Source: an uncultured Acidobacteriota bacterium
GTDB taxonomy: Bacteria > Acidobacteriota > Vicinamibacteria > Vicinamibacterales > JAFNAJ01
Reading direction: 5' to 3'
NCBI GenBank assembly: GCA_963697285.1
Contig: CAVONI010000001.1
Location: 320,812-384,811, forward strand
DNA length: 64,000 nucleotides
The notes under the pieces were generated by a model. That model saw only the letters and a list, made by a program, of their open reading frames with translations, searched no databases and was not told the origin of the DNA. Shown here one piece after another: positions 5,487-64,000 of the stretch. The position numbers were made by a program, and so were the translations under genes. Position 1 is the stretch's first letter. Each line of letters starts with the position of its first letter.

Positions 5487-5616
5487 GTCATGTCTGCACG
5501 ATGCGTCGCCGATTTCGCCCGTCGGTGTCGCCGCCGGAGACGCCAGCGACCCGTTTCTGGGGCTGCTGACGGAACAGGCCTTGCTACGCAGGGACCGCAG
5601 CAAAGGGAGGCAACTC

Positions 5617-6198: not shown

Positions 6199-6274
6199 CG
6201 CGCCAGCACGAGGTGCGGCGGCGCGACCGGCGAATGGTCGCGCTGTCGCACCGGTGCTCGGTGACATGCGATGT

Positions 6275-6403
6275 GTACGGCGTCTGCCCGCCGGTGGCCC
6301 CGTACACTTCACCGGTCACGAAGCGGGCCTCGTGTGACGCGAGGAAGACGAACATCGTGAGTCCGGCTGTTTGTTCCTGCCCACGACAGTGAGTGTCGCC
6401 GTT
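6275..6403 (-). pseudogene. remnant of the C-terminus of a short-chain dehydrogenase/reductase
   Basis: The minus frame reads ...QTAGLTMFVFLASHEARFVTGEVYGATGGQTPY, the FLAS-x-EA-x-FVTG-x-GG C-terminal signature of SDRs. An in-frame stop lies immediately upstream and no Rossmann or catalytic part is present. Confidence 0.3.
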
Positions 6404-6603
6404 TCACACAACGTCAAACCCGGCCAATGTTCACGGGCGAATATGCCCCACCACGCAACCCAGAGAAGTCGAGGAAAAGTGACATTCGACTACCTGGGGA
6501 AGTGGCATCCATAGTGCAACAGAAGCCGCCAGCACAGGGGCAGCGTCAGGTTCGCTCTTACTGCGCCTGGACGTCAGTGCCTTTGTCTGCTCATGAGGTT
6601 CCC

Positions 6604-6936
6604 ATGCTCAAGAACTGGTTGCTGTTGCACGCGTCGCGTTCTCCTGGCGATACGCCAGGGCGCGCATCGGCGCCGCCCCTTCGCCAAGAGTACGGCGGCC
6701 CGCGCCATGCGTCTGATGGCTCGCAGGTGTCACCCGATGGATCGGAGCCCGAACGTTCCGTAGACGCGCCTCCCACGCCGCACCAGGAGTCACCCGCAGG
6801 CAAGACGCCCCCGCTGCCGGTCCCGCCTACCGTGCCGCCCTCTGAGCCGCAGCCCGTGCCGGTCGACGACCCACCGCTGCCGCCAGACGTTCCATACACA
6901 GTTCGGAAAGACCACAACGCGGACGAGGACCGCTAG
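6604..6936 (+). CDS. proline-rich hypothetical protein
   Basis: ATG 6604 has GAGG 7 nt upstream, within ORF 6427..6936. The composition is low-complexity PPLPVPPTVPPSEPQPVPVDDPPLPP and coding status is uncertain. Confidence 0.3.
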   Translation: MLKNWLLLHASRSPGDTPGRASAPPLRQEYGGPRHASDGSQVSPDGSEPERSVDAPPTPHQESPAGKTPPLPVPPTVPPSEPQPVPVDDPPLPPDVPYTVRKDHNADEDR

Positions 6937-7005
6937 TTGTCGGCGCGTTGCCGCCCTGCGTGCTCGTGAGAGTGCGCCAGGCGGCGAAGCGCGAAAGGGG
7001 GAGCA

Positions 7006-8331: not shown

Positions 8332-8479
8332 GCAGGGCGCGTGACGGAGGCGGTCGCCCGACGACCGCCTCCGGGCGCACGTGTCTCGCACTTCATGCTT
8401 CGGTGTGGCCGGTCCTCCCGCGACCTCGCGTCGGGATGCGATGGGTGCTCACGAATGTCTCACGCGAAAGGGCGCGACC

Positions 8480-29285: not shown

Positions 29286-29401
29286 GCCACCGCGCCCAGC
29301 CTGCGTGTGGCGCTCACGCGCAGCCGGTCAACCCGCGGCGTCGTGCCGGTGATCGAAATGGGCAACATGACCATGGTCTCTGACCATGGTAATATCCGGC
29401 G

Positions 29402-29641
29402 ATGGACACGATGGCGATCTCGACGTTCAAGGCCACCTGCCTGGCCGCGCTGGAGCGCGTCCGCCGGACGGGGCGGCCGCTGCGCGTCACGCGGTTCGGC
29501 AAGCCCGTGGCCGACATCGTCCCCCCAATGCCGGACCCCGCGCCGCGCGAGTGGCTGGGGACGCTGCGGGGGACACTCGACATCCAGGCCGACGTGACGG
29601 TGCCGTCAGGCGAACTCGTCACGTGGGACGCCCTCAAGTGA
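29402..29641 (+). CDS. type II antitoxin, Phd/YefM family
   Basis: 79 aa. MDTMAISTFKATCLAALERVRRTGRPLRVTRFGKPVADIVP matches the Phd/YefM N-terminal fold signature. Its stop overlaps the toxin start. Confidence 0.8.
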   Translation: MDTMAISTFKATCLAALERVRRTGRPLRVTRFGKPVADIVPPMPDPAPREWLGTLRGTLDIQADVTVPSGELVTWDALK

Positions 29642-30039
29642 AGCTGCTGCTCGACACCCACATCTGGCTCTGGAGCCACGTCGCGCCCGAGCGGCTCACG
29701 AAACGCGTCGCCGCTGCGCTCGCGCGCGAGGGCAATGAACTGTGGCTGTCACCGATCAGCGTCTGGGAGTTCCTGCTGCTCGCCGAGCGCGGACGTGTGC
29801 GGGTCAGAAACGGCATGGCCCCGCGCGACTGGGTGGAGTTGGCCCTCACTACGGCGCCCATGCACGATGCGCCATTGAGCCGCGAGGTGGCGATTCGCAG
29901 CCGGGCGCTGCGCGTCGACCACGACGATCCAGCCGATCGGTTCCTTGCGGCAACGGCAGACGTCTACGACCTGACGCTCGTGACGGCCGACGAACACCTG
30001 TTGCGAGGCAAGGGCTTCCGCACGCTCGCCAATCGCTGA
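29638..30039 (+). CDS. vapC: type II toxin VapC (PIN domain ribonuclease)
   Basis: GTG 29638 overlaps the antitoxin TGA (GTGA). The sequence VKLLLDTHIWLW...SPISVWEF...DPADRFLAATA...TLVTADEHL carries the PIN acidic residues. Confidence 0.85.
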   Translation: MKLLLDTHIWLWSHVAPERLTKRVAAALAREGNELWLSPISVWEFLLLAERGRVRVRNGMAPRDWVELALTTAPMHDAPLSREVAIRSRALRVDHDDPADRFLAATADVYDLTLVTADEHLLRGKGFRTLANR

Positions 30040-30085: not shown

Positions 30086-30778
30086 CTAGCGCGGCGATGT
30101 CTTGCAGGTGATCGAAATCCCCGACCAGCTCGCACGGTTGATCGTCGTCCGCCCGTCGGTGAGGCGGTCGAGCGCGGCGAGGAAATCCCTGGCTCCGCCG
30201 CCGCGCATCGCGACATTGTGCGCCGTGAAGCAGCCGCCGGGGGCGACCTTGGGCCACACGGCCGCAAGGTAGTTCGGGTACCACTCCTTGTCGGCATCCG
30301 AGAACACGAAGTCCCATGGGCCCTGCAGGGTGCGCGTCAGCTCGTGGGCATCGCCCAGGCGGGCGTCGATGTAGCGCTCGAGGCCCGCGGCCTTGAAGTG
30401 CGCCACCGCCTCGCGGTGACGCTGCGGATCGATCTCGAGCGTGGTCAGGCGCCCGCCCGTCTTGCTCAGGGCCCACGCGATCCAGATGCCGGAGTGCCCC
30501 GTGGACGTGCCGATCTCGAGCGCCCGCGTGAACCGGTGCTCGAGGATGAGGTCGTGCAACGTCTGACCATCGACGGCATCGACGTTCATGTCACGCCACG
30601 TTCCCCGGCGCGCATCGAGATAGGCCCGCACGCGCGCGTCGAGATCCGGCGTCGCCGTGGCCTGGTCGCCGGCAGCGCCGGCGCTGCCCCGGGCAGCGTG
30701 ATGCGGCGGGCCTGCCGTGATCAGCACCGCGATTGCGAGCGATAGGCCCAGGACGAATGAGTTCGCATGGAACCGCAT
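30086..30778 (-). CDS. class I SAM-dependent O-methyltransferase (caffeoyl-CoA OMT-like) with signal peptide
   Basis: ATG at 30778. The sequence is MRFHANSFVLGLSLAIAVLITA, then ALEIGTSTGHSGIWIAWAL...LTTLEID...DFVFSDADKEWY. Confidence 0.8.
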   Translation of the reverse strand: MRFHANSFVLGLSLAIAVLITAGPPHHAARGSAGAAGDQATATPDLDARVRAYLDARRGTWRDMNVDAVDGQTLHDLILEHRFTRALEIGTSTGHSGIWIAWALSKTGGRLTTLEIDPQRHREAVAHFKAAGLERYIDARLGDAHELTRTLQGPWDFVFSDADKEWYPNYLAAVWPKVAPGGCFTAHNVAMRGGGARDFLAALDRLTDGRTTINRASWSGISITCKTSPR

Positions 30779-31076
30779 GGACGCTCCTCCGAACGCGATC
30801 GTGTCGCGTCGCGCTAGTCTAGCGCGCCACCAGGCGCATGGCGTCGCGGCGGCCGGCCCGACGCTCGTCATCCGGCGTGCCGGGCGCAGCCGGAGCGGTC
30901 GTCATGCCCAGGGGGCAACGGCGCGGGCCGACTTTCGTCCACATACCCATTCTGGTAGGTTCACCCGTGCGGACCGCCGGCCGGGCGCTCACCCACGCGG
31001 GTGGCATGACTCTTCACGCCCTGGCCGCCGAGGGCGCGGCGTGTGCCGCAGGCGGTCTGAGAGGCCTGCCGTGACC

Positions 31077-33925
<2,849 letters not shown>

Positions 33926-34256: not shown

Positions 34257-34769
34257 ATGTCTGACACGATGACCCTTCCACGCCGCCGGGCGGCCCTCGG
34301 CATGGCCCTCGGGCTGATCGCTGCGGCGACGCCGCTTCGCGCCCAGGGGGCGAAGCCGAGCCCCGAGGTGGAAGCGTTGAAGGCGCTGCTCGACGCGCAC
34401 GACAAGGCGTTCACGGCGCACGATATGAAGGGCGTGCTCGCGCTGTTTGCGCCCAATGCGACCATCCTGGGCACGGGCCCGGGCGAGATTTGGGGTGGCC
34501 ACGAGGAGATTGCGGTCGCCTACAGCCACTTCTTCGAGGACTTCGATCCCGGCAAGCAGACGGTCGAAGCGCTGTGGCGCGACGGTCACGTGCTCGGCGA
34601 CATGGCCTGGCTGATGACGTCCACCAAGGTCACCATGACGAAGGGGGCGACGGTCGTCGAGGTCGGGCTCAACCTTTCGGTCACGTTCGAGAAGATCGCG
34701 GGCAAGTGGCTCGTCCGCACCATGCACTTCTCGAACCTCACCGGCGGCGCGCCGCCAGAGAAGAAGTAG
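34257..34769 (+). CDS. SnoaL-like / NTF2-fold (DUF4440-like) protein with twin-arginine signal
   Basis: ATG 34257 follows GGAGGA. The Tat-like signal is MSDTMTLPRRRAALGMALGLIAAATPLRAQG. The NTF2-like body is ALLDAHDKAFTAHDMKGVLALFAPNA...KWLVRTMHFS. The gene ends 7 nt before the precursor gene. Confidence 0.7.
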   Translation: MSDTMTLPRRRAALGMALGLIAAATPLRAQGAKPSPEVEALKALLDAHDKAFTAHDMKGVLALFAPNATILGTGPGEIWGGHEEIAVAYSHFFEDFDPGKQTVEALWRDGHVLGDMAWLMTSTKVTMTKGATVVEVGLNLSVTFEKIAGKWLVRTMHFSNLTGGAPPEKK

Positions 34770-34776
34770 GACCGTC

Positions 34777-35151
34777 ATGGACGACACGCGCGACGACTTC
34801 CTTCCCGAGCCGGTCGACGAGGCCCGGCGCGAGTTCCTGCAAGGCGTCAAGTCCTGGTCGGCGGCCGTCGCCACGCTCGCGCTCGGCGGCTCGTTCGTGG
34901 CCGTGAGCACGCGGCCGGCTTCCGCGTGGGTCAACAGCAGCGCCACGTGGGTCAACACGCGAGGCGGCTGGATCAACAAGGCCGGGGCGTGGGTCAACAA
35001 GGCCGGCGCGTGGGTCAACGGCGCCGGCGGTTGGGTGAACAGGGCCGGCGGCGGCGGTTCCGCCGGCTGGGTGAACAAGGCCGGTGGCGGCAGCACTGCC
35101 GGCTGGGTGAACAAGCGTGGCGGCGGCGGCGCTGCCTGGGTGAACCGATAG
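34777..35151 (+). CDS. RiPP precursor candidate: Tat-leader peptide with nine W-[V/I]-N motifs in a Gly-rich repeat (GRRM/triceptide-like)
   Basis: 124 aa. The leader MDDTRDDFLPEPVDEARREFLQGVKSWSAAVATLALGGSFVAVSTRPASA has an RREFL twin-arginine motif and an A-S-A cleavage site. The core is WVNSSATWVNTRGGWINKAGAWVNKAGAWVNGAGGWVNRAGGGGSAGWVNKAGGGSTAGWVNKRGGGGAAWVNR. A radical SAM/SPASM gene lies 0.8 kb downstream. Confidence 0.75.
   Translation: MDDTRDDFLPEPVDEARREFLQGVKSWSAAVATLALGGSFVAVSTRPASAWVNSSATWVNTRGGWINKAGAWVNKAGAWVNGAGGWVNRAGGGGSAGWVNKAGGGSTAGWVNKRGGGGAAWVNR
34927..35148 (+). repeat. coding repeat: nine TGGGT(C/G)AAC / TGGATCAAC (W-V/I-N) units with 21-39 nt spacing
   Basis: Direct reading of the core region. 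Spacers lengthen and become Gly-rich towards the 3' end. Confidence 0.9.
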
Positions 35152-35186
35152 CTCCGGACGACGAGCCGTTCTCAACAGTCGTCAGC

Positions 35187-35947
35187 GTGCCAGTGGTGTG
35201 CGCGGCAGACCATGGACAGGGCGCGCTCATCCTGCGCGTCACGAATCCCGGGGATGTGCCTCGCGTTGCGGATGTCGATCCGCGGCGCGTCGTCTGGGTC
35301 GAGACCCCAGTTGGGCTTGCCGGCAGTGACTGGCCGCCCGGCATCGGGCTCGACCTGCGCGTGGTGGAGCCCGGGACAGAGGCCGCGTTGCTCTACGCGG
35401 TCGCGCACGTCGCGAACGAGCGCCCGCTTCGCGTGACGATTCCGGTCGAGCGCGGAGTGGCGAAGGCTGCCCGCGTGGCGATGGCCCTCCACCTGCCTGT
35501 GCGCCTGGCGGCGCAGCAACCAACGCCTGCGGCAGTCGCCGAACTCGCGTCCGTCCTCGAGGCGTACCTGCACGACTCACAGGCGACCGAGCCGGTCGAG
35601 TTCTTCCACTCGGCCCTCGCCCACGACGTCCACGGCGTGCCCACGACGCTGTGGATGGCCGTGGAGCGTGACCCGGCGTTCCACCAGAGGATGGCAGAGG
35701 ACGGGACTGCCGACCCGCGGGAACCCCCGCCAGACGAGGGCTTCGTTGCCGCGCACCTCTCCGGCGTTGACCGCGGCCGGGGCGGCGTGCGCGACGTGCC
35801 GTTTTCGCGACTTCTGTAGCGGGTTACTTCAAGTGGCCGGATCCCGCGTACGATTGCGGGCCGGTCATCGAACTGCTCGAGCAACTCCGGGCCGCCTCGG
35901 GTCAGCTCGCGCGCGACCTCGACGAAGCAGGGCCGGTGCAGACGTGA
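35187..35947 (+). CDS. rSAM-partner protein with C-terminal CxxCx5C Cys cluster (frame broken about twice)
   Basis: Frame 0 runs from GTG 35187/35193/35196 (VPVVCAADHGQGALILRVTNPG...EGFVAAHLSGVD). Frame 1 then reads AAGAACATCRFRDFCSG. Frame 2 then reads YFKWPDPAYDCGPVIELLEQLRAASGQLARDLDEAGPVQT. The frame-2 stop overlaps the rSAM GTG (GTGA at 35944-35947). Frame 2 has no start codon of its own. Confidence 0.5.
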
Positions 35948-37078
35948 CCGGGCCGCCGCTCAGCCTCATCCTGCTGCCGACGCTCGACTGCAACGTCGCC
36001 TGCGACTACTGCTTCGAGGAGAAGGCGCGCATCTCGCTGTCGCACGATGCAGCTGTCGCAGCTCACCGGCAGGATCCTCGATTACATGGCCGAGCGCGGG
36101 ACGACGCGGGCGGAGCTGTACTGGCAGGGCGGCGAGGCGCTGCTGATGGGCCACGCGTGGTTCGAGCGCGCCTTCGAGACGATGGGGCAGGCCGCGGCGC
36201 AGCGCGGCCTCGTGTTCCATCACTCGCTGCAGACCAACCTGATCGGCTACGGGCCGCACTGGAACGCGATCCTGCGCACGATGTTCGACGGCTCGGTCGG
36301 CACGTCGATGGACGTTCCGAATCGTCACCGCCGGCTGAAGAACGGGAGCACCGAACGCTACACCGAGGTGTGGCTCCGATCGGTGCGACAGGCCCGCGAG
36401 GCCGGGCTGAAGGTCGGCGTGATCGCGGTGCTCCACGCGGGCAGCCTCGACATCGGGGCGCGCGAGTTCCTGTCGTTCTTCACGCAGCAGGCCGGCATCG
36501 ACGACCTCCAGGTGAACCTGCCCTTCCCGGGCGGGCCGGGGCAGGGGGGCGACACGCTGGCGCCCGAGGCGCTGACCCGTTTCCTGATCGAACTCCTGGA
36601 CGCCTGGATGGAGACCGGCGCCGACCGTGGCGTCCGCCTCGGTCCGTTCGACGCGCTCCTCGACGCGTTCTCGGGCCGCCAGGCGCAACTGCCCTGCATC
36701 TGGCAGCCGAACTGTGCGAACGAGTTCGCGGCGATCGATGCGCGCGGCTCGGTGGCGCTCTGCGACTGCTGGGTCACCAGCTATCCCGAGCACCGCTTCG
36801 GCAATGTCTTCGGCACATCGAGCCTCTCCGAAATGCTGGGCGCGAGCCCCGCGCGCCAGGCATTCCTCGATCGGCCGGCGCACCTCGTGGATCACGACGA
36901 CTGCGGATCCTGCGCGCACCTGTCGCTGTGTCATGGCGGTTGTCCGGTTCGCACCTTCGCGGCCACCGGCACGATCCTCGCGAAGGACCCTTATTGCGAG
37001 GTCTACAAGGCGCTCTTCACGGAGTGCCGCGAGCGAGCGGCGGCGACCGTGCGGCGGCGCCATGCCGCCCTGTCATGA
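35944..37078 (+). CDS. radical SAM/SPASM domain peptide-modifying enzyme, interrupted by one frameshift near 36046
   Basis: The CX3CX2C motif LDCNVACDYCFEE (35989-36012) is in frame 1. The remainder (MQLSQLTGRILDYMAERG...YWQGGEALL...) is in frame 2 (ORF 36047..37078). It carries the SPASM motif CGSCAHLSLCHGGC plus upstream and downstream Cys residues. Confidence 0.85.
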
Positions 37079-37117: not shown

Positions 37118-37861
37118 TTGCGCCAGACAGCAGGGAGGTTCGCCATCGGCCAGCGCTTCGAGACCACCCACTGGAGCGTCGTGCGGGCAGCGCAGACCGC
37201 TGACACGCAGCGGCGTCGCGACGCGCTCGGGGTGTTGTGCGATGCCTACTGGCCGCCCATCTACGCCTTCCTCAGGCGGCGGGGCCTGTCACCGGAGGAC
37301 GCGGCCGACCTCACGCAGGCCTTCTTCCTCCACCTCGTCGAATCGCAGCGGCTCGCGAACGTCGATCCGGCACTCGGCCGATTCCGCTCGTTCCTGCTCG
37401 CCTCGGTGAAGAACTTCGTCGCCAACGAGTGGGATCGCGAGCGCGCGCAGAAGCGCGGTGGACACATGGCCCGCGTGGCCTTCGACCCCGACGCGCTCGA
37501 ACGCCGCTACAAGGCACTGCACCGTGACGATCTCGACCCCGAGCGCCTGTTCGACCGGCATTGGGCGCACATCGTCCTGGAGCGCGCCGTCGATCGCCTC
37601 CGCGCCCAGCAGGAACGCGCCGGCAAGGAACGCGAGTTCGCGCTGCTGCGCACGTTCCTGACGTCGGACGCGGGTGGGGAGCGTGCCTACCGCGAGGTGG
37701 CCGCGGAACTCGGCGCGACCGAACCGGCGGTGCGGACCGCCGTGCACCGCTTGCGGTTGAAGTACGGGACGTGCCTGCGCGAGGAGATCGCCGAGACGGT
37801 CAGCGATGCCGTCGCTGCCGACGCGGAACTCCGTCACGTCCTGATCGTGGCCGCCGCGTGA
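37118..37861 (+). CDS. ECF-type RNA polymerase sigma factor
   Basis: The N-terminus is FETTHWSVVRAAQ. Region 2 reads LCDAYWPPIYAFLRRRGLSPEDAADLTQAFF. Region 4 reads YREVAAELGATEPAVRTAVHRLRLKY. The start codon is uncertain (TTG 37118; a GGAGG lies at 37134-37138). The gene is convergent with the Ser/Thr kinase gene. Confidence 0.8.
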   Translation: MRQTAGRFAIGQRFETTHWSVVRAAQTADTQRRRDALGVLCDAYWPPIYAFLRRRGLSPEDAADLTQAFFLHLVESQRLANVDPALGRFRSFLLASVKNFVANEWDRERAQKRGGHMARVAFDPDALERRYKALHRDDLDPERLFDRHWAHIVLERAVDRLRAQQERAGKEREFALLRTFLTSDAGGERAYREVAAELGATEPAVRTAVHRLRLKYGTCLREEIAETVSDAVAADAELRHVLIVAAA

Positions 37862-37954: not shown

Positions 37955-40741
37955 TCAGGCGGCGATGGCCCGCGTGAAGCGCTCGAGGAACTCGTGCGCC
38001 GACTGCGGCCGGCTGGCCACGTCGTCGGCGAGGGCGGCAGCGACAAAGACCGCGAGCGCCGCACTGAGCCGCCGTGGCGTGTGCACCACCGGATAGGTCC
38101 CTGTGGTGAGCTCCGCGTCGCGCTGGTGGTTGGCCAGACCGCGCGGTCGCGAGCCCGTCAGCATCTCGGCCGTCATCACCCCGAGCGCCCAGAGGTCCCA
38201 CAACGGCGATGTCTCCTCGCCGGCCAGTTGCTCGGGCGACATGTACGCCAGCGAGCCGACGATCACATCGGCGTGTGTGCGCGGCGTGGTCACCGACGAT
38301 GACCCCGCAAGGACCTTGGCGATGCCGAAGTCGAGCAGTTTCGTCACCTCGTGATCGGTCGAACGCGCGAGGAAGACATTCTCGGGCTTCAGGTCGCGGT
38401 GCACGAGGCGTCGGCTGTGGGCCTCCTCCAGGACGTGGCAGATGTCACTGACCACGCGCGAGGCACGCGGCACGTCGAGCGCGCCGTCGCGGGAAATGGC
38501 GTCGCGCAACGTGCGGCCTTCAAGGCATTCCATCAGCAGGAACGCGCGCCCGCTGCGCGTGACGCCGACGTCGTAGACCGTCACGACGTTGGGATGCGTG
38601 AAGCTCGCCGCCACCTGCGCCTCGCGCCTGAATCGCTCGGCGGCGTCGCTGCTGCCCACGAGGTGATCCCCGATCACCTTCACCGCCACCTGGCGGACGA
38701 GGGCCTCGTCGCGTGCGCGGTAGACGCGCCCCATGCCGCCGGCGCCGATGCGGGCTTCGAACCGATACCGCCCCGCGAGTACCGGCGGCAGATCGTTGAC
38801 CATCAGCAGCACGCCGTCGTGCGGGCACCGCGCGAGGGTGGTATCGAAACAGGCGCCGCAGTCAGGACACTCGGCCAGCGACGCGTCACCTTCGTCCGGC
38901 ATCGACGTCGGCGTCGCCGACACCGCGCGATCGAGCAGGAGGCCAAGGCTCGCGGCGATCGCCTCGAGCAGCGCGATGTCGTCGCGCGTGTAGGGCTCCT
39001 CTGACCGCTTCGGCCCGAGCGCCAGCAGCACCTCGCGCCCGGCCTCGACCGTCACGGGGACGACCAGTTCCACCTCGGCGTCGAACACGGCGTGTGACTC
39101 GTCGGCGGTCAGGTGCTGCGTAATCCACGTGTCGTGATCGGGCGATAGCTGGAGGGCCGATCCCGTGGCACGCGCAAGTCCGACCAGCGTCCAGCCCGGC
39201 GCCGGGGCGAACTGCCGGGGAAACGATGGCGTCGCCGCGAGGATGGCAAAGGGACCGGTGTCACCACGGTGCGCGAGCGCACCGACGAACGCCGGTTGCA
39301 GGGCGGCAGCCACTTCATCGACCACGTGCGCGGCGGCGCCGGCAGGATCAGTGGCCGTGCGCAGCCGGGCGGCCACGCTGTGCAGGACCTGCTCGGCCCG
39401 GTGACGTTCGCGGAAGAAGCGGCGATCGAGCTCGTCGAGCCATCGGCGCCGGTTGACGAGCGTCACCCCGAGCGCTCCCGCGAGCAATGCGTAGAGCCAT
39501 CCCCGTGCCTGCAGCAGTGGGCCGATCGGCTGGTCGTGGCGCAGCAGGATGTCGGCCATCAGCGCGACCGCCAGCACGGGCACGAGGCCGATCAGGAGCC
39601 GTCGCGCCAGCGCGTAGCGCACGCCCTGGCGCAGGATCGACCCGACATCGAACACGCGTTGCCGCAGCACCACGTACGCCACAGAAAGCGGGAAGGGCAG
39701 CAACATCAACACGCCCGCCAGCGTCAGCGGCGAGTGGAACAGGCCGCTCGTCACCTGCGATGAGCTGCCGAGCCAGAATTCCGTTTCGACCAGGGCGGCC
39801 GCCAACGCGCCAATGGTTGCGCCTGCCAGGAGCAGGCGCAGGCGGCGCACCTCGGCAGGCTCGTGCAGTCGGCGGTACTGGGCGACCAGCATCACCAATC
39901 CGCCGGCCGAATAGGCAGTCGTGAGCGCGACCATGTGCGGCATCCAGTCGCGGCCCGTGAGGGTGCGCGCCTCGAGCTGCACGGCGATGTACCCGAACGC
40001 GACGTGCCAGGCCAGGATGATCGCCCCGGGGACGCACAGGAGGGGCACGGCCCACGGGCGGTCGCGCAGGAGCGGCTGCGGAAACCGGGCACTGAACAGG
40101 AAGAAGAGCATCGGGCCTGCCATGCTGCACAGGAAGGGCAGCCACATGGCCCACTCGAGCGGTGCGGGAAGGCTCCGCCAGTAGCGGGCGAAGCCGAAGG
40201 GCAGGACGATGGTGAAGACCGCGAGGCTGCCGAGCAACAGCGCCGCGAGTCCCGCAAGCCAGTTGCCGGGGCGCCTGACCGCGACCATCACGCCGAGGGC
40301 GAGACACAGCGCCTGCACGAGCCGGGCGAACCAGAGGGCGAGGCTCTTGCTCTCGAGCGACTCCCAGCGACGTTGCACCGCCGACTCGATGCGCGTCGAG
40401 AACACGGCGCCGTCGCGCGTCACGTCGATTGCGATGGGACCGCCCGTGAGGTTCGCGTCCACCGCCATCCAGTCGAGGCGCGTCATCACGCGACGCTCCG
40501 CGTACGACCGCACGCGGTCGCCCGGCTTGATGCCCGCCTGCGCGGCGGGAGAGCCGGCCGTCACGCCGGCAACCAGCACGCCCGCCTCGTCGAAGGCGAT
40601 GTGCAGTCCGGTGGGGGTGCGCTGGAAGAGGTCGGCGTAGAGGAGGACGCCGAAGTAGAGCAGGAACGCGCCGATGACGGCGTAGACCCATGCAGCTGGA
40701 CGTGGCCGCCTGGTGCCGCGGGGGCGTGGTCGCTCAGGCAT
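37955..40741 (-). CDS. membrane Ser/Thr protein kinase with PDZ, polytopic TM, GAF-like and zinc-ribbon-like regions
   Basis: 928 aa. It has a PDZ-like AGSPAAQAGIKPGDRV, about 8 hydrophobic segments, a GAF-like region and CPDCGACFDTTLARCPHDG. The C-terminal kinase has GAGGMGRVYRA, VAVKVI, HRDLKPENVF, DFGIAK and YMSPEQ. Confidence 0.9.
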   Translation of the reverse strand: MPERPRPRGTRRPRPAAWVYAVIGAFLLYFGVLLYADLFQRTPTGLHIAFDEAGVLVAGVTAGSPAAQAGIKPGDRVRSYAERRVMTRLDWMAVDANLTGGPIAIDVTRDGAVFSTRIESAVQRRWESLESKSLALWFARLVQALCLALGVMVAVRRPGNWLAGLAALLLGSLAVFTIVLPFGFARYWRSLPAPLEWAMWLPFLCSMAGPMLFFLFSARFPQPLLRDRPWAVPLLCVPGAIILAWHVAFGYIAVQLEARTLTGRDWMPHMVALTTAYSAGGLVMLVAQYRRLHEPAEVRRLRLLLAGATIGALAAALVETEFWLGSSSQVTSGLFHSPLTLAGVLMLLPFPLSVAYVVLRQRVFDVGSILRQGVRYALARRLLIGLVPVLAVALMADILLRHDQPIGPLLQARGWLYALLAGALGVTLVNRRRWLDELDRRFFRERHRAEQVLHSVAARLRTATDPAGAAAHVVDEVAAALQPAFVGALAHRGDTGPFAILAATPSFPRQFAPAPGWTLVGLARATGSALQLSPDHDTWITQHLTADESHAVFDAEVELVVPVTVEAGREVLLALGPKRSEEPYTRDDIALLEAIAASLGLLLDRAVSATPTSMPDEGDASLAECPDCGACFDTTLARCPHDGVLLMVNDLPPVLAGRYRFEARIGAGGMGRVYRARDEALVRQVAVKVIGDHLVGSSDAAERFRREAQVAASFTHPNVVTVYDVGVTRSGRAFLLMECLEGRTLRDAISRDGALDVPRASRVVSDICHVLEEAHSRRLVHRDLKPENVFLARSTDHEVTKLLDFGIAKVLAGSSSVTTPRTHADVIVGSLAYMSPEQLAGEETSPLWDLWALGVMTAEMLTGSRPRGLANHQRDAELTTGTYPVVHTPRRLSAALAVFVAAALADDVASRPQSAHEFLERFTRAIAA

Positions 40742-40841: not shown

Positions 40842-41774
40842 CTACCTGTTGCCGAAGGTCCACATGAAGTTGACCATGGGGAAGACGAACGTCTCGTCGC
40901 CATCGACCGGCACTGCGAGCGCGAGGTCGGCCGAGAGTCGGTCGCCGATGAACCGGACGCCCAGGCTCAGGATGCCGCCATGCTCGAACAGGTAGTTCTC
41001 GGTGATGACCTTCAGGCGGCGGCTCACCCGGTGCTCGCCTCCCACCATCCCGACTGCGGCGCCGCCGCTGTCGCCTTCCTCGTAGGTGTACCCCCAGCCG
41101 GCCCCGACCGTGATTGAGCGGTCAGTCGTGCCGAACGTCGACACGCCGTACGCAATCCCCACGCTGCCATCCTCATCGTCGTCGAACGCCGTGATGTGCA
41201 TCACACCCACCGCGGCCTCGGCCGACTTGCCCTTGTAGACCTGCACCTTGGGTGTGAACCAGAACGGGTGCGACGTGTCGGCGCCGAAGAACAGGGGGGT
41301 GCCGCCGCCAACCGAGATGCGATCGGTGACGCCGACCTGCACGAACGGCATGAAGAACTCGTAGACGCCCACGTAGCCGCTGCCGGCAGGCAGCCCGCGG
41401 CCGGTCGGGCCGAAGAACAGACGCGTCGCGTTCGGATCCGCCGGAATGAACTCGGCGTTCTCATCGACACGTCCACGCGCGCGGCGCAGCACGACGATGT
41501 CTGCGCGCGACACGGTGACGCGCGCGCCTCCCACGGTCAGGAACACGATCGTGTCATCGGCGACCGATTCCACCCTGCCGTAGAACCTGGACCCATCGTG
41601 GAGTTCCAGTTCCATGGTTTCGCCGGGCGCCGAGACGACGATGGTCGCCGGCACGCGCGGTTGATCGGCGACCGCGGCCGACGCGAGGCCGGGGAGGGAG
41701 AGGAGCGCGACGAACGACACCGCGACCAGGGTGCGGTGCGTGAAGGCAAGGCGGCGATGTGCATGGCGTGACAT
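40842..41774 (-). CDS. secreted hypothetical protein (beta-rich, possible outer-membrane protein)
   Basis: 310-aa ORF with signal LVAVSFVALLSLPGLASAAVA. A Gly/aromatic-rich alternating pattern ends in FVFPMVNFMWTFGNR. Confidence 0.65.
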   Translation of the reverse strand: MSRHAHRRLAFTHRTLVAVSFVALLSLPGLASAAVADQPRVPATIVVSAPGETMELELHDGSRFYGRVESVADDTIVFLTVGGARVTVSRADIVVLRRARGRVDENAEFIPADPNATRLFFGPTGRGLPAGSGYVGVYEFFMPFVQVGVTDRISVGGGTPLFFGADTSHPFWFTPKVQVYKGKSAEAAVGVMHITAFDDDEDGSVGIAYGVSTFGTTDRSITVGAGWGYTYEEGDSGGAAVGMVGGEHRVSRRLKVITENYLFEHGGILSLGVRFIGDRLSADLALAVPVDGDETFVFPMVNFMWTFGNR

Positions 41775-41912: not shown

Positions 41913-42070
41913 GCCAAGGTTCCAAGGTCAGCGCTGTGACATGTACTTCCGCCCCGGCGACACGACGAAGTATCCTCTCGCGACCCACACAGGGCCCCAG
42001 GGCGACGAGAGGCCGCACGGTGCGCAGCACCGTTCGGCGTGTGACGGGCGGTGACGCCCGGAGGGACGAC

Positions 42071-43528
42071 ATGACGGAGCAGGTGCGCGCCACGCGGGCG
42101 GTCGTGGACTTCATCACCCGTGCGCGGTGGGACGACTTCGGGGCTGACGTGGTGGCGATGGGCAAGCGGTGCGTCATCGACGGCCTCGGCGTGACGCTGG
42201 CCGGGTCGACGACGGCCGGCAGCGGCATGCTGCGCGACTACATCTCGGCCTCGGGCGCGACAGCCGAGGCGACGGTCGTGGCGCCCGCACCCTTCGGCAC
42301 GACCGCCTCCCTCACGGCCCTGGCGAACGGCGCCAGCGGGCACGCCCTCGACTTCGATGACACGCAGCTCTCGTCGAGCCCTGATCGCATCTTCGGCCTG
42401 ATGACCCACCCCACCATCCCGCCGCTGGCGGCCGCGCTGGCGCTCGGCGAACGGCACCACGTGTCGGGCGCGCGCTTCCTCGAGGCGTTCCTCACCGGCT
42501 TCGAGGTCGAGTGCAAGATCGCCGAGGCGATTCACCCCTTCCACTACAAGAAGGGCTTCCACTCGTCGGGCACGGTCGGCACGTTCGGCGCCGCCGCCGC
42601 GGCGGCGAAGCTGCTGGGACTCGACGCGGCGGCGACGGCCCACGCCATCGCGATTGCGGCGAGCCTGGCTGGCGGCATCCGCGTGAACTTCGGCACGATG
42701 ACCAAGCCCCTCCACGTGGGACGCGCGGCACAGAACGGCGTGATCGCCGCGGAGTTGGCGTCTCGCGGTTTCACCGGGGGCGCCGACGCGCTCGACGGGC
42801 CGTGGGGATTCTTCGAGGTCTTCAGCTTCAGCGGGGGCTTCGATCCGGCGGTGATCGTCGGGACGCTCGGCCAGCCGCACAGCATCGTCACGCCCGGCAT
42901 CTCGATCAAGCCCTACCCGTGCGGCGTGCTCGGGCATCCCAGCATGGATGCCATGCTGAAGCTCGTGATCACGCACGACGTCAGCCCCGATCAGATCACG
43001 GCGATCCGGTTGCGCGCCGGGTCGAACATCCTCAACCCGTTGCGCTACGCCATCGCGCACAGCGAGCTCGAGGCGAAGTTCTGCCCGGCGTTCATGCTGT
43101 CGAGCATCGCGATCCGCCGCAAGGCGGGCATCCGCGAGTTCACCGACGAGTTCGTGTGCAGCGCGCCGGTGCAGGAGATGATGGCGCGGGTCCAGACCAT
43201 CCTCGACCCGGTCATCGAGGCTCGTGGCTTCGATCGCATCCGCAGCACCGTGGAGGTCGATCTCGCCGACGGGCGGCGCCTCGTCCAGGAGGCCGACGAG
43301 CGCTATCGCGGTGGTCCCGATCATCCCTTCACGCGCGAGGACCTGCACGGCAAGTTCTCGGACTGCGCGTCGCTCGTGCTGTCGCCAGCCACGATCACCG
43401 AAGCGCTCGCGATGCTCGAGACGCTCGAGACCGTGAACGACATCGGGCAACTGGTGCAGGTGGTGACCCCCCGGTCGGCCGTGGCGTCAGGCTCGCACGC
43501 GACCAGCGCGGCGAAGGAGACCGCATGA
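42071..43528 (+). CDS. MmgE/PrpD family protein (2-methylcitrate dehydratase-like)
   Basis: ATG 42071. Blocks are VVDFITRARWDDFGADVVAMGKRCVIDGLGVTLAG, HALDFDDT, and GFHSSGTVGTFGAAAAAAKLLGL...KPLHVGRAAQNGV. Confidence 0.85.
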   Translation: MTEQVRATRAVVDFITRARWDDFGADVVAMGKRCVIDGLGVTLAGSTTAGSGMLRDYISASGATAEATVVAPAPFGTTASLTALANGASGHALDFDDTQLSSSPDRIFGLMTHPTIPPLAAALALGERHHVSGARFLEAFLTGFEVECKIAEAIHPFHYKKGFHSSGTVGTFGAAAAAAKLLGLDAAATAHAIAIAASLAGGIRVNFGTMTKPLHVGRAAQNGVIAAELASRGFTGGADALDGPWGFFEVFSFSGGFDPAVIVGTLGQPHSIVTPGISIKPYPCGVLGHPSMDAMLKLVITHDVSPDQITAIRLRAGSNILNPLRYAIAHSELEAKFCPAFMLSSIAIRRKAGIREFTDEFVCSAPVQEMMARVQTILDPVIEARGFDRIRSTVEVDLADGRRLVQEADERYRGGPDHPFTREDLHGKFSDCASLVLSPATITEALAMLETLETVNDIGQLVQVVTPRSAVASGSHATSAAKETA

Positions 43529-59566: not shown

Positions 59567-59722
59567 GAGTCGTCTTACCTCTCGCAATCATTCGTCGTGT
59601 TTCCCCTCGTCGCGCGTCCCGCCAGCAGCCCCCAGGCTGGGTGCGGACGAGGTGTATGCAGTCCAGGTTCTGCCCGTCGCGCACCCTCCGTGCGCTGACG
59701 CTGAAGCACATCGGTTGGCGAC

Positions 59723-62700
59723 ATGACCATGACGTCCCCCCAGAAGTCACCAGCGAGCCGACCCGGTTTCCTGCGCACATCGATGCGGCATGCGGTCGCC
59801 ACCTTCGCGTCGGGCGTGGTGCTCGCGACGGCCGTTACCCTTGCCGGGCAGGTCGTCTCGGTCGAGACCACCGGCGTCACGCCCGGGGCAATCTTCTCGG
59901 TGACGGCGACGGGGCTCGATGCCACCGCCGCGAACAACCGCATCACGTTCACGCCGGTCTCCGGCGCGCCGGTCACCGTGGCAGCAGCGTCGAGCGCCCT
60001 GGTCGATGCGACGAAGGGCACCCGCCGCGTCGCTGTCAGGGTGCCTGGCGGACTCGAGACCGGGACCGCCACCGTCTCCATCCTCAACACGGTCACGAAT
60101 GACTCGACGAGCGTCGGCACGATCAATATCCTCAGCCTCTCGTTGCCCGAGGTGCGGAGCGGCGCGCCGGGGGCGACCGGGGTCGATGTCCTGGTGCGGG
60201 CGGGCGGCGCGGCCAACTTCGTCGCCGGCCAGACGCGCGTCACGTTCGGCGCGGGCCTGACGGTGCGCAGCGTCTCGGTGATCTCGGCGACCGAGTTGCG
60301 TGCCTCGGTCGACATCGCCTCGACCGCCGCCGAGGGCCCGCGCGCCGTGTCGGTCACGGTGCCCCGCCAGAGCCTCGTGCTCGCCAACGCGTTCAGCGTC
60401 TCGACCGCGTCCCCCGTGAACCAGGATCCAGTTGCGCGCTTCACGATCACGCCGGCGTCGGCGCAGACGGGGCAGTCGGTGGCGTTCGACGGCACGACCT
60501 CGTCTGATCCGGACGGCGACGCCCTGACGTACGAGTGGGCGTTTGGTGACGGCACCTCGGCCACGGGCGCGAACGCCGCGCATGCCTACCTCGCCGCCAC
60601 CACCGTCTCGGTGACGCTCACCGTTCGTGACGGACGCGGAGGTGTCGGCACGGCCACCCAGTCGCTCGTCATCACGGCGCCCCCGCCGACGAACCACGAT
60701 CCGGTCGCGGACTTCACGTTCCAGCCGGCGTCACCGCAGACGAACCAGGCGGTGAGCTTCGACGCCAGCGGCTCGACAGACCAGGATGGCGATCCGCTCA
60801 CGTTCGAGTGGGCCTTCGGCGACGGCGGCACGGCGGCCGGCGCCCAGACCTCACACACGTTCGCCACGCCGAACACCTTCACCGTGTCGCTCACGGTGCG
60901 TGACGGCCGCGGTGGTGCGAACACGACCACGCGCCCGGTCGTGGTCACCGCGCCGCCTCCCGGCAATCGTCCGCCCACGGCAGCGTTCTCGGCGTCGTCG
61001 CTCAGCGTGTTCACGGGACAGGACGTGACGGTCGACGCCGCCACCTCGACGGATCCCGACGGCGACGTGCTGACGTATGGCTGGACGTTCGGAGACGGCA
61101 CTGCGGCGTCGGGTCTCCAGGCGGCACATGCCTACGCCACGGCCGGAAGCTTCACGGTGACGCTCACGGTCAACGACGGCAAGGGCGGAACCGACAGCAC
61201 GTCGAAATCCGTCACGGTGACGACACCAACGCAGGAGAACCGCCAACCGACGGCCGTGATCACCTCGTTCACGAGCGGACTCGTGAATCAGCCGTTCGCG
61301 TTCGACGGCGGCAGTTCGACCGACCCCGACGGCGACGCGCTCACGTACGCCTGGCAGTTCGGCGATGGCGCCGTGGCGGCCGGCGTGGGTGTGACACGCA
61401 CCTACACCGCGACGGGATCCTTCACGGTGACGCTGACCGTCAGCGACGGACGCGGCGGCTCGAGCACAGCGACGCGCCCGATCACGATCAACGCGCCCGA
61501 CCCGTCGAACCAGGCGCCCACCGCGCGCATCGCGGCCCCTGCGTCGGCCGACGAAGACACGCCCGTCGCGATGAATGGCCTGGGCTCGTCCGATCCCGAC
61601 GGCGACGTGCTGTCGTATGTCTGGGACTTCGGCGACACGACCAGCGGCACCGGTGCATCGGTGACGAAGACCTATGCCGAAGCCGGGCCGTTCACCATCT
61701 CGCTCACCGTCAGCGACGGCAAGGGCGGCACGCACACCGCCACGCAGGCGATCACCATCAGTCGCGTCGTGACGCAGAACGCAGACCCCACCGCGGTGAT
61801 CACTGCGGGCGACACGGGAGCAGTGAACCAGCCCGTGCTGTTCAACGCCGGCGCATCGAGCGATCCGGATGGCGACCCGCTGAGCTACGCGTGGACGTTC
61901 GGCGACAGCACGAACGCGACGGGCAAGGACACGTCGCATGCCTACGCGACCGAGGGCACGTTCACGGTCACGCTCACGGTGAGCGATGGCCGGGGCGGCA
62001 CGGGCACGGCGACGAAGGCGGTGCGGATCAGTGCGGTGTCACAGCAGAATCAGCCACCGACGGCCGTGATCAGCGGTGCCGCCTCGGGCGTCGCCGGCGT
62101 CGAGTTGCAGTTCGACGGCCGCGGGTCGAGCGACCCCGACGGCGACGTGCTCACCTACGCGTGGTCGTTCGGCGTCACGGGCGCGACGAGCGCGAGCGAT
62201 GCGCCCGCGTTCATCTATCCCGACGCCGGGACGTTCGTGGTGACGCTCACGGTCACCGACACCGCCGCCAACAGCGATTCGACGACACGCACGATGACGA
62301 TCAGCGCGCCGACCGACCGCGCTCCGCCCGTCGTGGGCCTCGACGGCCCGACCGAGGCCTTGCCGGGCACGATGGTGACGTTTGCCGCGTCGGCCACCGA
62401 CAATGTCGGCGTCACGAACGTGCGCTTCGAGGTCACGGGCATCGACGGCGTGCCGCCGACCGACCTCCCGGCCGCCCCCTACTCGCGCGACATCACGCTG
62501 CCTGCCGTGGTGGCACCCGGACAGCAGGTCACGATCACGGCCATTGCCAGCGACGCCGCCGGCAACACCGGCCGCGCCACCGCACCGCTCACGATCACGA
62601 CGCAGCAGGACTCGACCGAGCCATCGGTGACGCTGGTGGCGCCACCGCGCACGTCACCCGGTGCCTCGATGCTGCTCGTCGCGCGCGCGTCAGACAACCG

Positions 62701-64000
62701 GGGCGTCACGCGCGTCGTGTTCTTCGTCGACGACGTCGAGGTCGGCACCGACACGACCGCGCCCTACGAGGTGACGACGAGCGTGAGCGCGGCGGCGACG
62801 AGCGGGCAGACCCTCACGGCCCTCGCGCGGGCCTTCGATGCCGCAGGCAACAGTGCAGAAAGCGCAGCGGCCATCCCCGTCGTCGCGACCGCCGACACGA
62901 CGGATCCGTCGGTGACGCTGCAGGCGCCGGCCGACGCGCTCCCCGGCGCCCGCATCGACATCGTGGCGACCGCGCAAGACGACACGGGCGTCGCGACGGT
63001 CACGTTCGCGGTTGACGAGGCGCAGTTGCCGGCCGTGTCGGAAGCGCCCTACGCCACGACATACGTGGTGCCGCCGACCGCGCTTCCGGGCTCGACCATC
63101 GCGCTGAGAGCGGTGGCACGCGACTTCGCCGGCAACTCGGGCCAAGCCACGGGCAGCGTCAAGGTCATGGCCCCGCCGGCCTCGTCGCGCGGCGTCGTGT
63201 TGGGCGAGGTCTACAGTGACGCCACCGGGCTGCCGCTGGCCGACGCGCTCGTGACCCTGGTCGGGACCGACGCGCTCGGCAAGCCCTACGCCGAGGCGGC
63301 ATTCTCGGATGCCCGGGGGCGCTACGTGCTCCGCGCCGCCGGCGGCGATGGGAGGCTGGTCGTCACGCTTCAGAACCACACGCGCGTCGATCGCGCCGTG
63401 ACCATCCGTGGCGGACAGGCCACCGAGGCCTTCGACGCGCGGCTCACGCCGCTCGTGGGATCCAACATCATCGTCTCGGCCGTGCTCGGCGGGACGCTGG
63501 ATGCCGCGGGTGTGGCCCTCACGCTTCCGGCCGGATCGCTGTCCACCGATCGCGCGTTCCGCGTGGCGGGGATTGGCCAGCAGGGACTCGCGAACCGCCT
63601 GCCGGCCGGATGGTCGCCCGTGGCGGCCGCCGAGATCCTGCCTCACGACGCGGTGTTCTCCGGCGCGGCGATGCTGCGCGTGTCGAACGCATTCGGGGTG
63701 CCCGCCGCAACGCCGCTTGCGCTCGTGCGCTACGACGAGGACGCAGGTATCTGGCGCGTCGTGCGGTCGCTGACCGTTCCGAGCGGCGGCACGGTGGTGG
63801 AGGCCGAGGTGCCGGGCGGCGGCCAGTACGCGTTCCTCCTCGCTGACACGTCGCCCGTTGCACCGGTTGTGCCCTCCGATGGCGCCGAACTCACCGGCGT
63901 CACTGCCGCCGTGCTTCCGACATCGCTCGACACCACGGTCGCACCGCAGCCGAAGGTCGTCTTCTACTCGCCGGGCGTGCGTTCGCTCGTGACGTCGACC
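59723..64000 (+). CDS. giant secreted repeat protein (IPT/TIG-like, 7 PKD domains, 3 Ig-like domains, carboxypeptidase-regulatory-like domain); 3' end outside window
   Basis: Frame 2 is open from ATG 59723 to the window end. It is absent from the ORF track because it has no stop. The N-terminus is MTMTSPQKSPASRPGFLRTSMRHAVATFASGVVLATAVTLAG. Seven x-DPDGD-x-L-x-Y-x-W-x-FGDG PKD signatures recur every 270-273 nt. DN(V/R)GV Ig-like repeats follow, then GVVLGEVYSDATGLPLADALVTLVG. Confidence 0.85.
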   Translation, partial: MTMTSPQKSPASRPGFLRTSMRHAVATFASGVVLATAVTLAGQVVSVETTGVTPGAIFSVTATGLDATAANNRITFTPVSGAPVTVAAASSALVDATKGTRRVAVRVPGGLETGTATVSILNTVTNDSTSVGTINILSLSLPEVRSGAPGATGVDVLVRAGGAANFVAGQTRVTFGAGLTVRSVSVISATELRASVDIASTAAEGPRAVSVTVPRQSLVLANAFSVSTASPVNQDPVARFTITPASAQTGQSVAFDGTTSSDPDGDALTYEWAFGDGTSATGANAAHAYLAATTVSVTLTVRDGRGGVGTATQSLVITAPPPTNHDPVADFTFQPASPQTNQAVSFDASGSTDQDGDPLTFEWAFGDGGTAAGAQTSHTFATPNTFTVSLTVRDGRGGANTTTRPVVVTAPPPGNRPPTAAFSASSLSVFTGQDVTVDAATSTDPDGDVLTYGWTFGDGTAASGLQAAHAYATAGSFTVTLTVNDGKGGTDSTSKSVTVTTPTQENRQPTAVITSFTSGLVNQPFAFDGGSSTDPDGDALTYAWQFGDGAVAAGVGVTRTYTATGSFTVTLTVSDGRGGSSTATRPITINAPDPSNQAPTARIAAPASADEDTPVAMNGLGSSDPDGDVLSYVWDFGDTTSGTGASVTKTYAEAGPFTISLTVSDGKGGTHTATQAITISRVVTQNADPTAVITAGDTGAVNQPVLFNAGASSDPDGDPLSYAWTFGDSTNATGKDTSHAYATEGTFTVTLTVSDGRGGTGTATKAVRISAVSQQNQPPTAVISGAASGVAGVELQFDGRGSSDPDGDVLTYAWSFGVTGATSASDAPAFIYPDAGTFVVTLTVTDTAANSDSTTRTMTISAPTDRAPPVVGLDGPTEALPGTMVTFAASATDNVGVTNVRFEVTGIDGVPPTDLPAAPYSRDITLPAVVAPGQQVTITAIASDAAGNTGRATAPLTITTQQDSTEPSVTLVAPPRTSPGASMLLVARASDNRGVTRVVFFVDDVEVGTDTTAPYEVTTSVSAAATSGQTLTALARAFDAAGNSAESAAAIPVVATADTTDPSVTLQAPADALPGARIDIVATAQDDTGVATVTFAVDEAQLPAVSEAPYATTYVVPPTALPGSTIALRAVARDFAGNSGQATGSVKVMAPPASSRGVVLGEVYSDATGLPLADALVTLVGTDALGKPYAEAAFSDARGRYVLRAAGGDGRLVVTLQNHTRVDRAVTIRGGQATEAFDARLTPLVGSNIIVSAVLGGTLDAAGVALTLPAGSLSTDRAFRVAGIGQQGLANRLPAGWSPVAAAEILPHDAVFSGAAMLRVSNAFGVPAATPLALVRYDEDAGIWRVVRSLTVPSGGTVVEAEVPGGGQYAFLLADTSPVAPVVPSDGAELTGVTAAVLPTSLDTTVAPQPKVVFYSPGVRSLVTST
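60424..62300 (+). repeat. seven tandem PKD-domain coding repeats (270-273 nt period)
   Basis: The DPDGD codon blocks start at 60506, 60779, 61052, 61322, 61592, 61862 and 62132. Confidence 0.85.

Follow-up and report, generated by a model that had tools for sequence, protein, structure and literature searches.

What becomes of a ribosomal peptide that carries nine Trp-x-Asn (W-x-N) motifs and is encoded next to a radical S-adenosylmethionine (rSAM) enzyme, and how would its product leave the cytoplasm? The question is raised by a four-gene locus in a 64,000-nucleotide stretch (referred to as the window) of contig CAVONI010000001.1 from an uncultured Acidobacteriota bacterium. The first-pass annotation of this DNA, with due hedging, read the locus as an operon for a peptide made on the ribosome and modified after translation (RiPP), similar to the GRRM and triceptide systems, with three extra elements: a twin-arginine leader, a partner protein and an NTF2-fold protein. 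We report that conservation of the locus, the W-x-N motif and the scores of the rSAM enzyme support this reading, and that each of the three extra elements is conserved along with the rest of the cassette. On balance we lean towards interpreting the locus as a self-contained cassette for maturation and export of a ribosomal Gly-rich poly-cyclophane peptide, which looks like an uncharacterised and widespread relative of the known triceptides.

The four tightly packed genes are on the same (+) strand and at the positions originally assigned. Specifically, the precursor gene starts seven nucleotides past the SnoaL gene (34769 to 34777), and the GTG start of the rSAM gene (35944-35946) overlaps the partner stop codon (35945-35947) in the sequence GTGA. 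The cassette and its parts are as follows.

34257-37078, +, four-gene cassette: SnoaL/NTF2-like protein, precursor, partner and rSAM/SPASM enzyme; co-directional, tightly packed
34257-34769, +, predicted exported SnoaL/NTF2-like protein, 170 aa, first cassette gene
34777-35151, +, precursor gene, 124 aa
34777-34926, +, precursor leader, residues 1-50: acidic N-region, RREFL twin-arginine motif, hydrophobic stretch and ASA cleavage-type site
34927-35151, +, precursor core, residues 51-124 and stop: nine W-[V/I]-N motifs with Gly-rich spacers
35136-35947, +, partner protein of an unnamed family, ~255-270 aa; stop codon 35945-35947; two 1-nt insertions near 35765 and 35818
35788-35857, +, Cys motif CxxCx5C-x12-C near the partner C-terminus, CATCRFRDFC[S/A]GYFKWPDPAYDC
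35944-37078, +, rSAM/SPASM enzyme, ~377-378 aa after repair; GTG start 35944-35946; stop codon 37076-37078; insertion near 36048

The repeat precursor and its conserved cassette

Exactly nine W-[V/I]-N triplets are found in the C-terminal 74 residues of the precursor (51-124), as had been counted at first pass. This number was reached in none of 100,000 composition-preserving shuffles of the core, and the repeats appear as 21- and 36-nt periods in the DNA. No second W-x-N open reading frame (ORF) was found in the window. A profile search showed that the peptide belongs to a family that forms, at 90% identity, at least 1,307 clusters; every one of these is annotated as "hypothetical" and lacks a Pfam domain. 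The family core motif is G-G-G-W-[I/V/L]-N-[R/G]-[R/G/W]-G, and among 72 complete precursors each core has 4-10 W-x-N copies, which together hold 437 of the 506 core Trp residues (86%). The middle residue is I (49%), V (41%) or L (6%) in 96% of the motifs, and the residue that follows is R in 65% and G in 26%. The cores are dominated by G (38%), R (14.5%), W (13.6%) and N (12.1%), and have no Asp, Glu or Cys. Variants of this theme were seen. A Verrucomicrobiota sub-family (L041, L043, L046, L050, L051, L053, L055-L058, L062 and L079) has Arg/Pro-rich spacers in place of Gly (WINRWGPRRGG...) and a second Trp per repeat that is outside W-x-N, and a Candidatus Contendobacter precursor (L076, 6925-7233) has W-Y-N and W-G-N in place of W-[I/V]-N.

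To follow the distribution of the cassette one genome per species was scanned with the rSAM enzyme, which gave relatives in 276 species genomes; phyla were read from the best 80 of these 276. The best 80 are mostly Verrucomicrobiota, including the cultured Chthoniobacter flavus Ellin428, Verrucomicrobium sp. BvORR034 and a Prosthecobacter metagenome-assembled genome (MAG), followed by Acidobacteriota (Blastocatellia/Pyrinomonadaceae) and a few Armatimonadota, Vulcanimicrobiota/Xenobia and Proteobacteria. This range, i.e., at least five phyla with the emphasis on Verrucomicrobiota and Acidobacteriota, is not cyanobacterial. Among 84 related loci the partner is present in 82, the W-x-N ORF in 74 and the SnoaL gene in 71; the precursor ORF is thus conserved beside the rSAM gene across phyla, which the first-pass annotation had named as a check on its own reading. 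The usual order is SnoaL, precursor, partner and rSAM, with rearrangements in L071 and L076 (rSAM, SnoaL, precursor in the latter), and in most loci the partner stop overlaps the rSAM start by 4 nt. Ten loci have no precursor; in six of these a contig end interrupts the locus. When the flanking ORFs of the 84 loci were clustered all against all, no other family was present in more than 15 of them, and therefore the cassette appears self-contained, with no dedicated protease or exporter.

The rSAM/SPASM enzyme and its likely chemistry

The enzyme has the rSAM motif CxxxCxxC (CNVACDYC) at 35989-36012 and the SPASM motif CxxCx5Cx3C (CGSCAHLSLCHGGC) at 36902-36943, both of which, like the GTGA overlap, had been read correctly from the sequence. 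It belongs to the SPASM subgroup by curated cut-offs (TIGR04085, 46.3 bits versus 27; PF13186, 22.5 versus 21.5) and is borderline for PF04055 (29.4 bits versus 29.5). The SPASM cysteines are all invariant in 39 homologues. No RiPP recognition element (RRE) domain was detected in the enzyme. More than 1,100 close homologues are known, all intact at ~380 aa, and intact orthologues are up to 84% identical to the window enzyme. It aligns end to end with the anaerobic sulfatase-maturating enzyme (anSME) anSMEcpe (PDB 4K36, E 2e-20) and with ChlB (9GM3, E 9e-12), and in a Foldseek search the AlphaFold model of an 84%-identical orthologue (pLDDT 87.5) fitted both equally (TM ~0.79-0.81), with CteB and SuiB behind. 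Judged from these comparisons, the enzyme forms a clade of its own among the SPASM enzymes with anSME architecture, the group to which the three-residue-cyclophane synthases belong. Moreover, the arrangement that marks triceptide loci, an aromatic-X-X precursor next to an rSAM/SPASM gene, is present, with the rSAM gene ~0.8 kb downstream in the same operon.

How close is the system to those already described? With GRRM (OscA-OscB or GrrA-GrrM; TIGR04260 and TIGR04261) it shares a Gly-rich precursor of ~110-125 aa with many aromatic-x-Asn motifs and a SPASM rSAM neighbour, and the window repeat region aligns to the repeat end of the GrrA model. The precursor scored 23.4 bits (E 7e-5) against the TIGR04260 (GrrA/OscA1) cut-off of 31. 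This alignment is limited to residues 49-89, i.e., the repeat region (profile positions 78-117 of 118), and leaves the leader unmatched; E-values of 0.01 or lower were obtained for eight of 37 family members, none of which outscores the window peptide. The enzyme reached 69.3 bits (E 2.9e-19) against TIGR04261 (GrrM/OscB), where the cut-off is 310. The window cassette also differs in having the four-Cys partner and the exported NTF2-like protein, and GRRM is mainly cyanobacterial whereas the cassette is hosted by Verrucomicrobiota, Acidobacteriota and others. Since no equivalog cut-off is reached, the system is GRRM-like and not a GRRM member; of the likeness proposed at first pass, the W-x-N motif, the Gly-rich repeat and the SPASM enzyme stand while membership by NCBIfam does not.

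The other NCBIfam models rank as follows: anSME (TIGR03942) 130.3 bits versus a cut-off of 349, DynA (NF041298) 126.7 versus 450, TIGR04083 124 versus 300, DarW 103, DarE 81, AmcB 67, YhhB 58, FxsB 54 and XyeB 53. ChlB and the other triceptide synthases with anSME architecture (XncB/XyeB, YhhB, HaaB and HtkB) share with the window enzyme a single-polypeptide fold without RRE (TM 0.79-0.81 to ChlB) and the full set of SPASM cysteines, and the ChlB-group enzymes act on aromatic-X-X. However, the identity to ChlB is ~20%, the XyeB, YhhB, AmcB and FxsB scores are all far under their cut-offs, and the characterised enzymes work without a four-Cys partner. DynA is the second-best model and forms a Trp-Asn link, but the window enzyme does not reach its cut-off, and the dynobactin system has one short core without repeats, an exporter of its own, and neither a signal-type leader nor a partner. 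Finally, anSME provides both the nearest solved structure (4K36) and the top model; it too is a SPASM enzyme of the cytoplasm, and its substrate bears a signal peptide and is modified prior to export. Unlike anSME loci, the cassette has no sulfatase neighbour and the precursor no Cys/Ser-x-P-x-R.

The GRRM-system enzyme OscB joins Trp C7 to Asn/Asp Cβ on W-x-N, XncB joins Trp C6 to Arg/Asn Cβ, and the dynobactin enzyme DynA joins Trp C6 to Asn Cβ (PMC11002830). By analogy, one Trp-to-Asn-Cβ cyclophane per W-x-N motif is the most economical prediction. The same rSAM clade is found alongside cores rich in aromatic-x-x in the divergent relative L087.

Leader, partner, exported protein and surroundings

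The leader of the window precursor has RREFL at residues 17-21 and ASA|W at the border to the core. Among the 72 complete precursors RR.F[LF] is present in 70 and the remaining two carry KR instead; the first W-x-N lies 32-37 aa from RR and the uncharged stretch has a median length of 19 aa. A-x-A is found within 8 aa of the core in 51 of the 72, the h-region is moderately hydrophobic and Gly/Ala-rich, and the c-region has basic residues in 28. The sequence "GKWS" is conserved after the twin-arginine motif. These leaders have the anatomy of a signal for the twin-arginine translocation (Tat) pathway, i.e., an RRxFL-type motif, an uncharged h-region and small residues at -3/-1. The curated Tat model TIGR01409 gives sub-threshold scores and therefore the assignment relies on motif anatomy, from which we infer that the peptide is exported via the Tat pathway and cleaved at A-x-A. 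The earlier wording, a bona fide twin-arginine export leader, thus holds for the motif and the anatomy and not for the curated cut-off.

A long precursor with a signal-type leader has a counterpart in the bufferins, whose precursors use general secretion (Sec) signal peptides, regarded as rare for bacterial RiPPs (PMC11626156). Likenesses extend to a modifying enzyme with a partner protein and to a periplasmic product with no dedicated protease or exporter (PMC11626156). The differences are that bufferins are modified by MNIO and DUF2063 on Cys and carry a Sec signal, whereas the window leader is of the twin-arginine type and its core is unrelated.

The partner belongs to a compact family: a set of 1.84 billion proteins has 423 representatives of it at 50% identity. 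Neither the window partner nor any of 57 homologues matched Pfam or NCBIfam, and a profile search against PDB sequences gave no match. In these 57 aligned homologues C218, C227 and C240 are invariant and C221 nearly so, and the Cys motif is kept in distant fused forms too. The AlphaFold2 model has an alpha/beta fold (pLDDT 91.6). When the partner was compared with the rSAM profile, hhalign aligned just the CxxCx5C...C of the SPASM region (E 0.0015, probability 17%). The SPASM-like partner of the first-pass annotation accordingly bears a weak resemblance to SPASM, confined to its C-terminal Cys motif, and we rejected the notion that it is a degenerate rSAM paralogue since the likeness is confined to this motif. 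The four Cys positions match those that we take to be the ligands of auxiliary cluster II in anSME, so it is plausible that the partner carries a single [4Fe-4S] site. As to its start, relatives use GTG (L004) or TTG (L001) 16 nt inside the precursor 3' end. The window has CTG 35136 at this site, and therefore translation would start either there or at a GTG ~50 nt downstream (35187/35193); in the precursor frame the CTG difference swaps one Ala codon for another.

The leader and the partner domain are also found outside the W-x-N family. In the cluster encoding P0399 (L087/L088) two precursors have the same RRxF[LF]NGLGKWS leader with different cores rich in aromatic-x-x, and adjoin two homologues of the SPASM enzyme. 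The partner domain in P0399 is C-terminal to a HemN-like enzyme, while it is N-terminal to a CxxxCxxC enzyme in P0417, P0419 and P0480. Mainly because leader and partner domain travel together in this way, we propose that the partner probably recognises or holds the RRxFLxxxGKWS leader. There is precedent for an rSAM cross-linker that needs a small non-RRE chaperone, WprC (PMC11851443). WprB-WprC likewise has a repeat-motif precursor and an rSAM enzyme that relies on an accessory protein unrelated to PqqD-type RREs (PMC11851443), but WprC is 97-103 aa without a Cys motif, the enzyme is of another clade, and the motif is WPR with a Trp-Arg link.

Some further arrangements of the partner were noted. 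In other proteins the domain is fused to a different rSAM or methyltransferase-containing region (among L085, L088, P0399, P0417, P0419, P0423, P0439 and P0480). The L087 cluster (1552-8361) has non-repeat cores with HYK, WVN, YPK and YAK motifs, and its enzymes are two SPASM rSAM paralogues, a HemN-like rSAM::partner fusion and one further rSAM. In a Verrucomicrobiae MAG (L032, 3999-6197) partner and rSAM form a single 732-aa ORF, which is either a natural fusion or the result of a stop codon lost to assembly error.

The SnoaL/NTF2-like protein is a member of its family by the curated cut-offs (SnoaL_3, PF13474, 48.3 bits versus 22; the SgcJ/EcaC family TIGR02246, 35.7 bits, just over 33.95), and also matches DUF4440 with 39.1 bits. 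All 69 aligned orthologues have an N-terminal export signal, which is of differing kinds: NRR in many Verrucomicrobiota, TRK variants, lipoboxes in Pyrinomonadaceae, and RRR in the window. Judged by these signals the protein is always extracytoplasmic by a route that is not fixed; the Tat signal assigned at first pass thus holds in part. H48, D49, E77, D97, N139, H157 and S159, all polar, are shared by 90% or more of the orthologues, and these seven residues suggest a defined pocket, catalytic or ligand-binding.

Upstream of the cassette a P-type cation ATPase (E1-E2_ATPase, Cation_ATPase_N and Cation_ATPase_C; 30717-33925, +) is split into at least five ORFs in different frames, and the same gene in the sister contig L004 (446-3116) is broken at other positions. 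Because the fragmentation differs it points to indel-rich assemblies rather than biology. About 4 kb upstream is a type II toxin-antitoxin pair, a Phd/YefM-type antitoxin (29393-29638, +) and a PIN-domain (VapC-like) toxin (29644-30039, +). An extracytoplasmic function (ECF)-type sigma factor (Sigma70_r2; 37118-37861, +) is directly downstream, convergent with a gene for a membrane Ser/Thr kinase (928 aa, N-terminal PDZ domain; 37955-40741, -); this pair adjoins the cassette in L004 but not in distant relatives, and therefore probably does not belong to the system. An ORF of 310 aa (40842-41774, -), whose N-terminus is signal-like and which has no Pfam match, lies between the kinase gene and an MmgE/PrpD-family gene (41936-43528), and a PKD/Big/cadherin-like repeat protein of more than 1,424 aa (59705-64000, +) continues past the window end. 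No RNA families were found in the window with Rfam, and a promoter/terminator scan of it was uninformative.

Proposed pathway, competing explanations and implications

In the pathway that we favour, the 124-aa precursor would be made with an N-terminal leader that doubles as a twin-arginine-type signal peptide, and the translationally coupled partner and rSAM/SPASM enzyme would act on it in the cytoplasm. The partner would probably grip the RRxFLxxxGKWS leader and, through its four Cys, may carry a metal or an Fe-S cluster. Within each W-[V/I]-N a 5'-deoxyadenosyl radical would abstract the Asn Cβ hydrogen and the resulting carbon radical would add to the Trp indole, after which an auxiliary cluster and a base would re-aromatise the ring to give a three-residue cyclophane. 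For the window peptide this predicts nine rings and a mass change of -18 Da. The rigidified product would leave post-translationally via the general Tat pathway, and signal peptidase I would cleave past A-x-A (ASA|WVN) to give a 74-aa cationic, Trp/Arg(Lys)/Gly-rich periplasmic product. Cleavage by signal peptidase after Tat export would explain the absence of a protease and a transporter in the cassette. More speculatively, the exported NTF2-like protein would bind or further process the 74-aa product.

Several observations weigh against this pathway, some of them in favour of a rival. With respect to chemistry, the enzyme misses every NCBIfam equivalog cut-off, with the non-RiPP anSME as its top model. 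The rSAM enzyme might thus modify the repeat peptide in another way, e.g. by a Trp-Arg link in W-x-N-R, a C-O or C-N link, epimerisation or β-hydroxylation. That the enzyme is in no characterised family, that Arg is next after most motifs and that neighbouring rSAM/SPASM clades form ether, C-N and Trp-Arg links all speak for such chemistry, which we nevertheless regard as unlikely: x-Asn follows 86% of the core Trp residues while position +3 is Gly in 26%, and OscB and XncB join Trp(i) to the Cβ of Asn(i+2) on the same motif in the same Gly-rich setting. Thioether and formylglycine chemistry are excluded because the core has no Cys and few Ser. It is extremely improbable that the enzyme is of the anSME type, acts on an unlinked protein and has the W-x-N peptide as an unrelated neighbour. 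TIGR03942 is indeed the top model and anSMEcpe the best PDB match by sequence and fold, but 130 bits is far under 349 and on par with DynA and TIGR04083, the triceptide synthase ChlB is structurally as good a match, and the W-x-N ORF, partner and SnoaL gene co-occur across five phyla with no sulfatase among the conserved neighbours. An anSME identity, which the first-pass annotation had named as a finding that would overturn its reading, was rejected on these scores and the missing sulfatase. Four loci (L005, L006, L049 and L065, from an Armatimonadetes MAG, a Xenobia MAG and two Verrucomicrobiota MAGs) hold partner and rSAM with no adjacent W-x-N precursor or SnoaL gene; a frame-shifted precursor remnant may be present in L049 (1538-1873). 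As for the partner, its likeness to SPASM is weak by the hhalign probability, and its model has no significant PDB neighbour (none better than E 0.03).

With respect to export, TIGR01409 gave the window peptide 15.2 bits (E 0.021) against a cut-off of 16.7 and an E-value of 0.01 or lower in just one of 37 family members, and, with a median net charge of -3 over 15 aa, the n-region is more acidic than is usual in signal peptides. Hence, the peptide might be modified as proposed while its N-terminus is a Sec signal, an uncleaved membrane anchor or a pure RiPP leader that resembles Tat, and the product would then be Sec-exported, membrane-tethered or otherwise released. The acidic n-region together with the over-conserved "GKWS" resembles an enzyme-recognition leader more than a generic signal, other clusters combine the partner domain with the same leader, one L087 precursor (1552-1890) lacks a clear A-x-A site, and bufferins use Sec (PMC11626156). 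We consider this rather unlikely in view of the nearly invariant RR.F[LF], a Tat hallmark, the moderate hydrophobicity of the Gly/Ala-rich h-region, the basic c-region residues in some members, and the lack of a conserved alternative exporter or protease; moreover, 4-10 strained rings installed by an oxygen-sensitive cytoplasmic enzyme would suit post-translational Tat export better than threading through Sec. The deposited locus also carries three frameshifts, outside long homopolymers, that leave ORFs of 208 aa and 343 aa in the public deposit, as would be seen if the cassette of the source genome were a decaying pseudogene cluster. We find this distinctly unlikely. Three-way alignment of the window with L004 (90% identical) and the intact, more distant L001 (rSAM 84% identical) showed that the corrections needed, two in the partner (near 35765 and 35818) and one in the rSAM gene (near 36048), are all 1-nt insertions private to the window assembly; L004 has two different private indels in the same genes, and the adjacent ATPase is fragmented in window and L004 alike. 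Deleting the three bases gives back full-length proteins with every conserved motif, and dN/dS versus L001 lies between 0.18 and 0.34 in each of the four genes, with 0.19-0.26 in the stretches downstream of the shifts. Because the frameshifts are private, the L004 indels differ and dN/dS is low, they are most probably assembly errors, and the cassette in the source genome is therefore probably functional.

Returning to the cassette as a maturation and export unit, what sets it apart by sequence from GRRM and the triceptides is the distinct enzyme clade, the twin-arginine-type leader, the obligate and portable four-Cys partner, the exported NTF2-like protein and the taxonomic range. In the literature searched, no paper on a twin-arginine leader combined with a SPASM-modified peptide was found, nor anything relevant on radical SAM cyclophanes in Chthoniobacter; the family may stand unnamed in triceptide surveys (Nat Chem 2020; JACS 2022). 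A bolder and tentative proposal, which we think has a lesser chance of being right, is that the system represents an undescribed class of RiPPs or mini-proteins. In this class the Tat signal would itself be the RiPP leader, the four-Cys partner (possibly with Fe-S) would act as a Tat "proofreading" chaperone, leader and partner would be a portable module, and the products, poly-cationic poly-cyclophanes of the periplasm, would act in the envelope and be served by the exported NTF2-like protein. As a chaperone the partner would hold the precursor for the rSAM enzyme(s) until all cyclophanes are installed and then free it to the Tat translocon, and the leader-partner pair would be reused with other cores and rSAM enzymes, of which L087-type clusters and partner::rSAM fusions would be examples.

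If the cassette works as we propose, it would represent a large and taxonomically broad branch of cyclophane peptides that spans 276 species genomes and, at 90% identity, 1,300 or more precursor clusters. The phyla concerned (Verrucomicrobiota and Acidobacteriota) have been little mined, and cultured hosts exist. General Tat export and signal peptidase would stand in for a dedicated RiPP protease and transporter, which would explain how a heavily cross-linked peptide exits the cytoplasm. The uniform repeated W-x-N substrate would be a handy scaffold for studies of processive cyclophane installation. Finally, an accessory domain that tracks the leader and is repeatedly fused to rSAM enzymes might turn out to be a new leader-recognition or Fe-S module, and would offer an entry point for genome mining.

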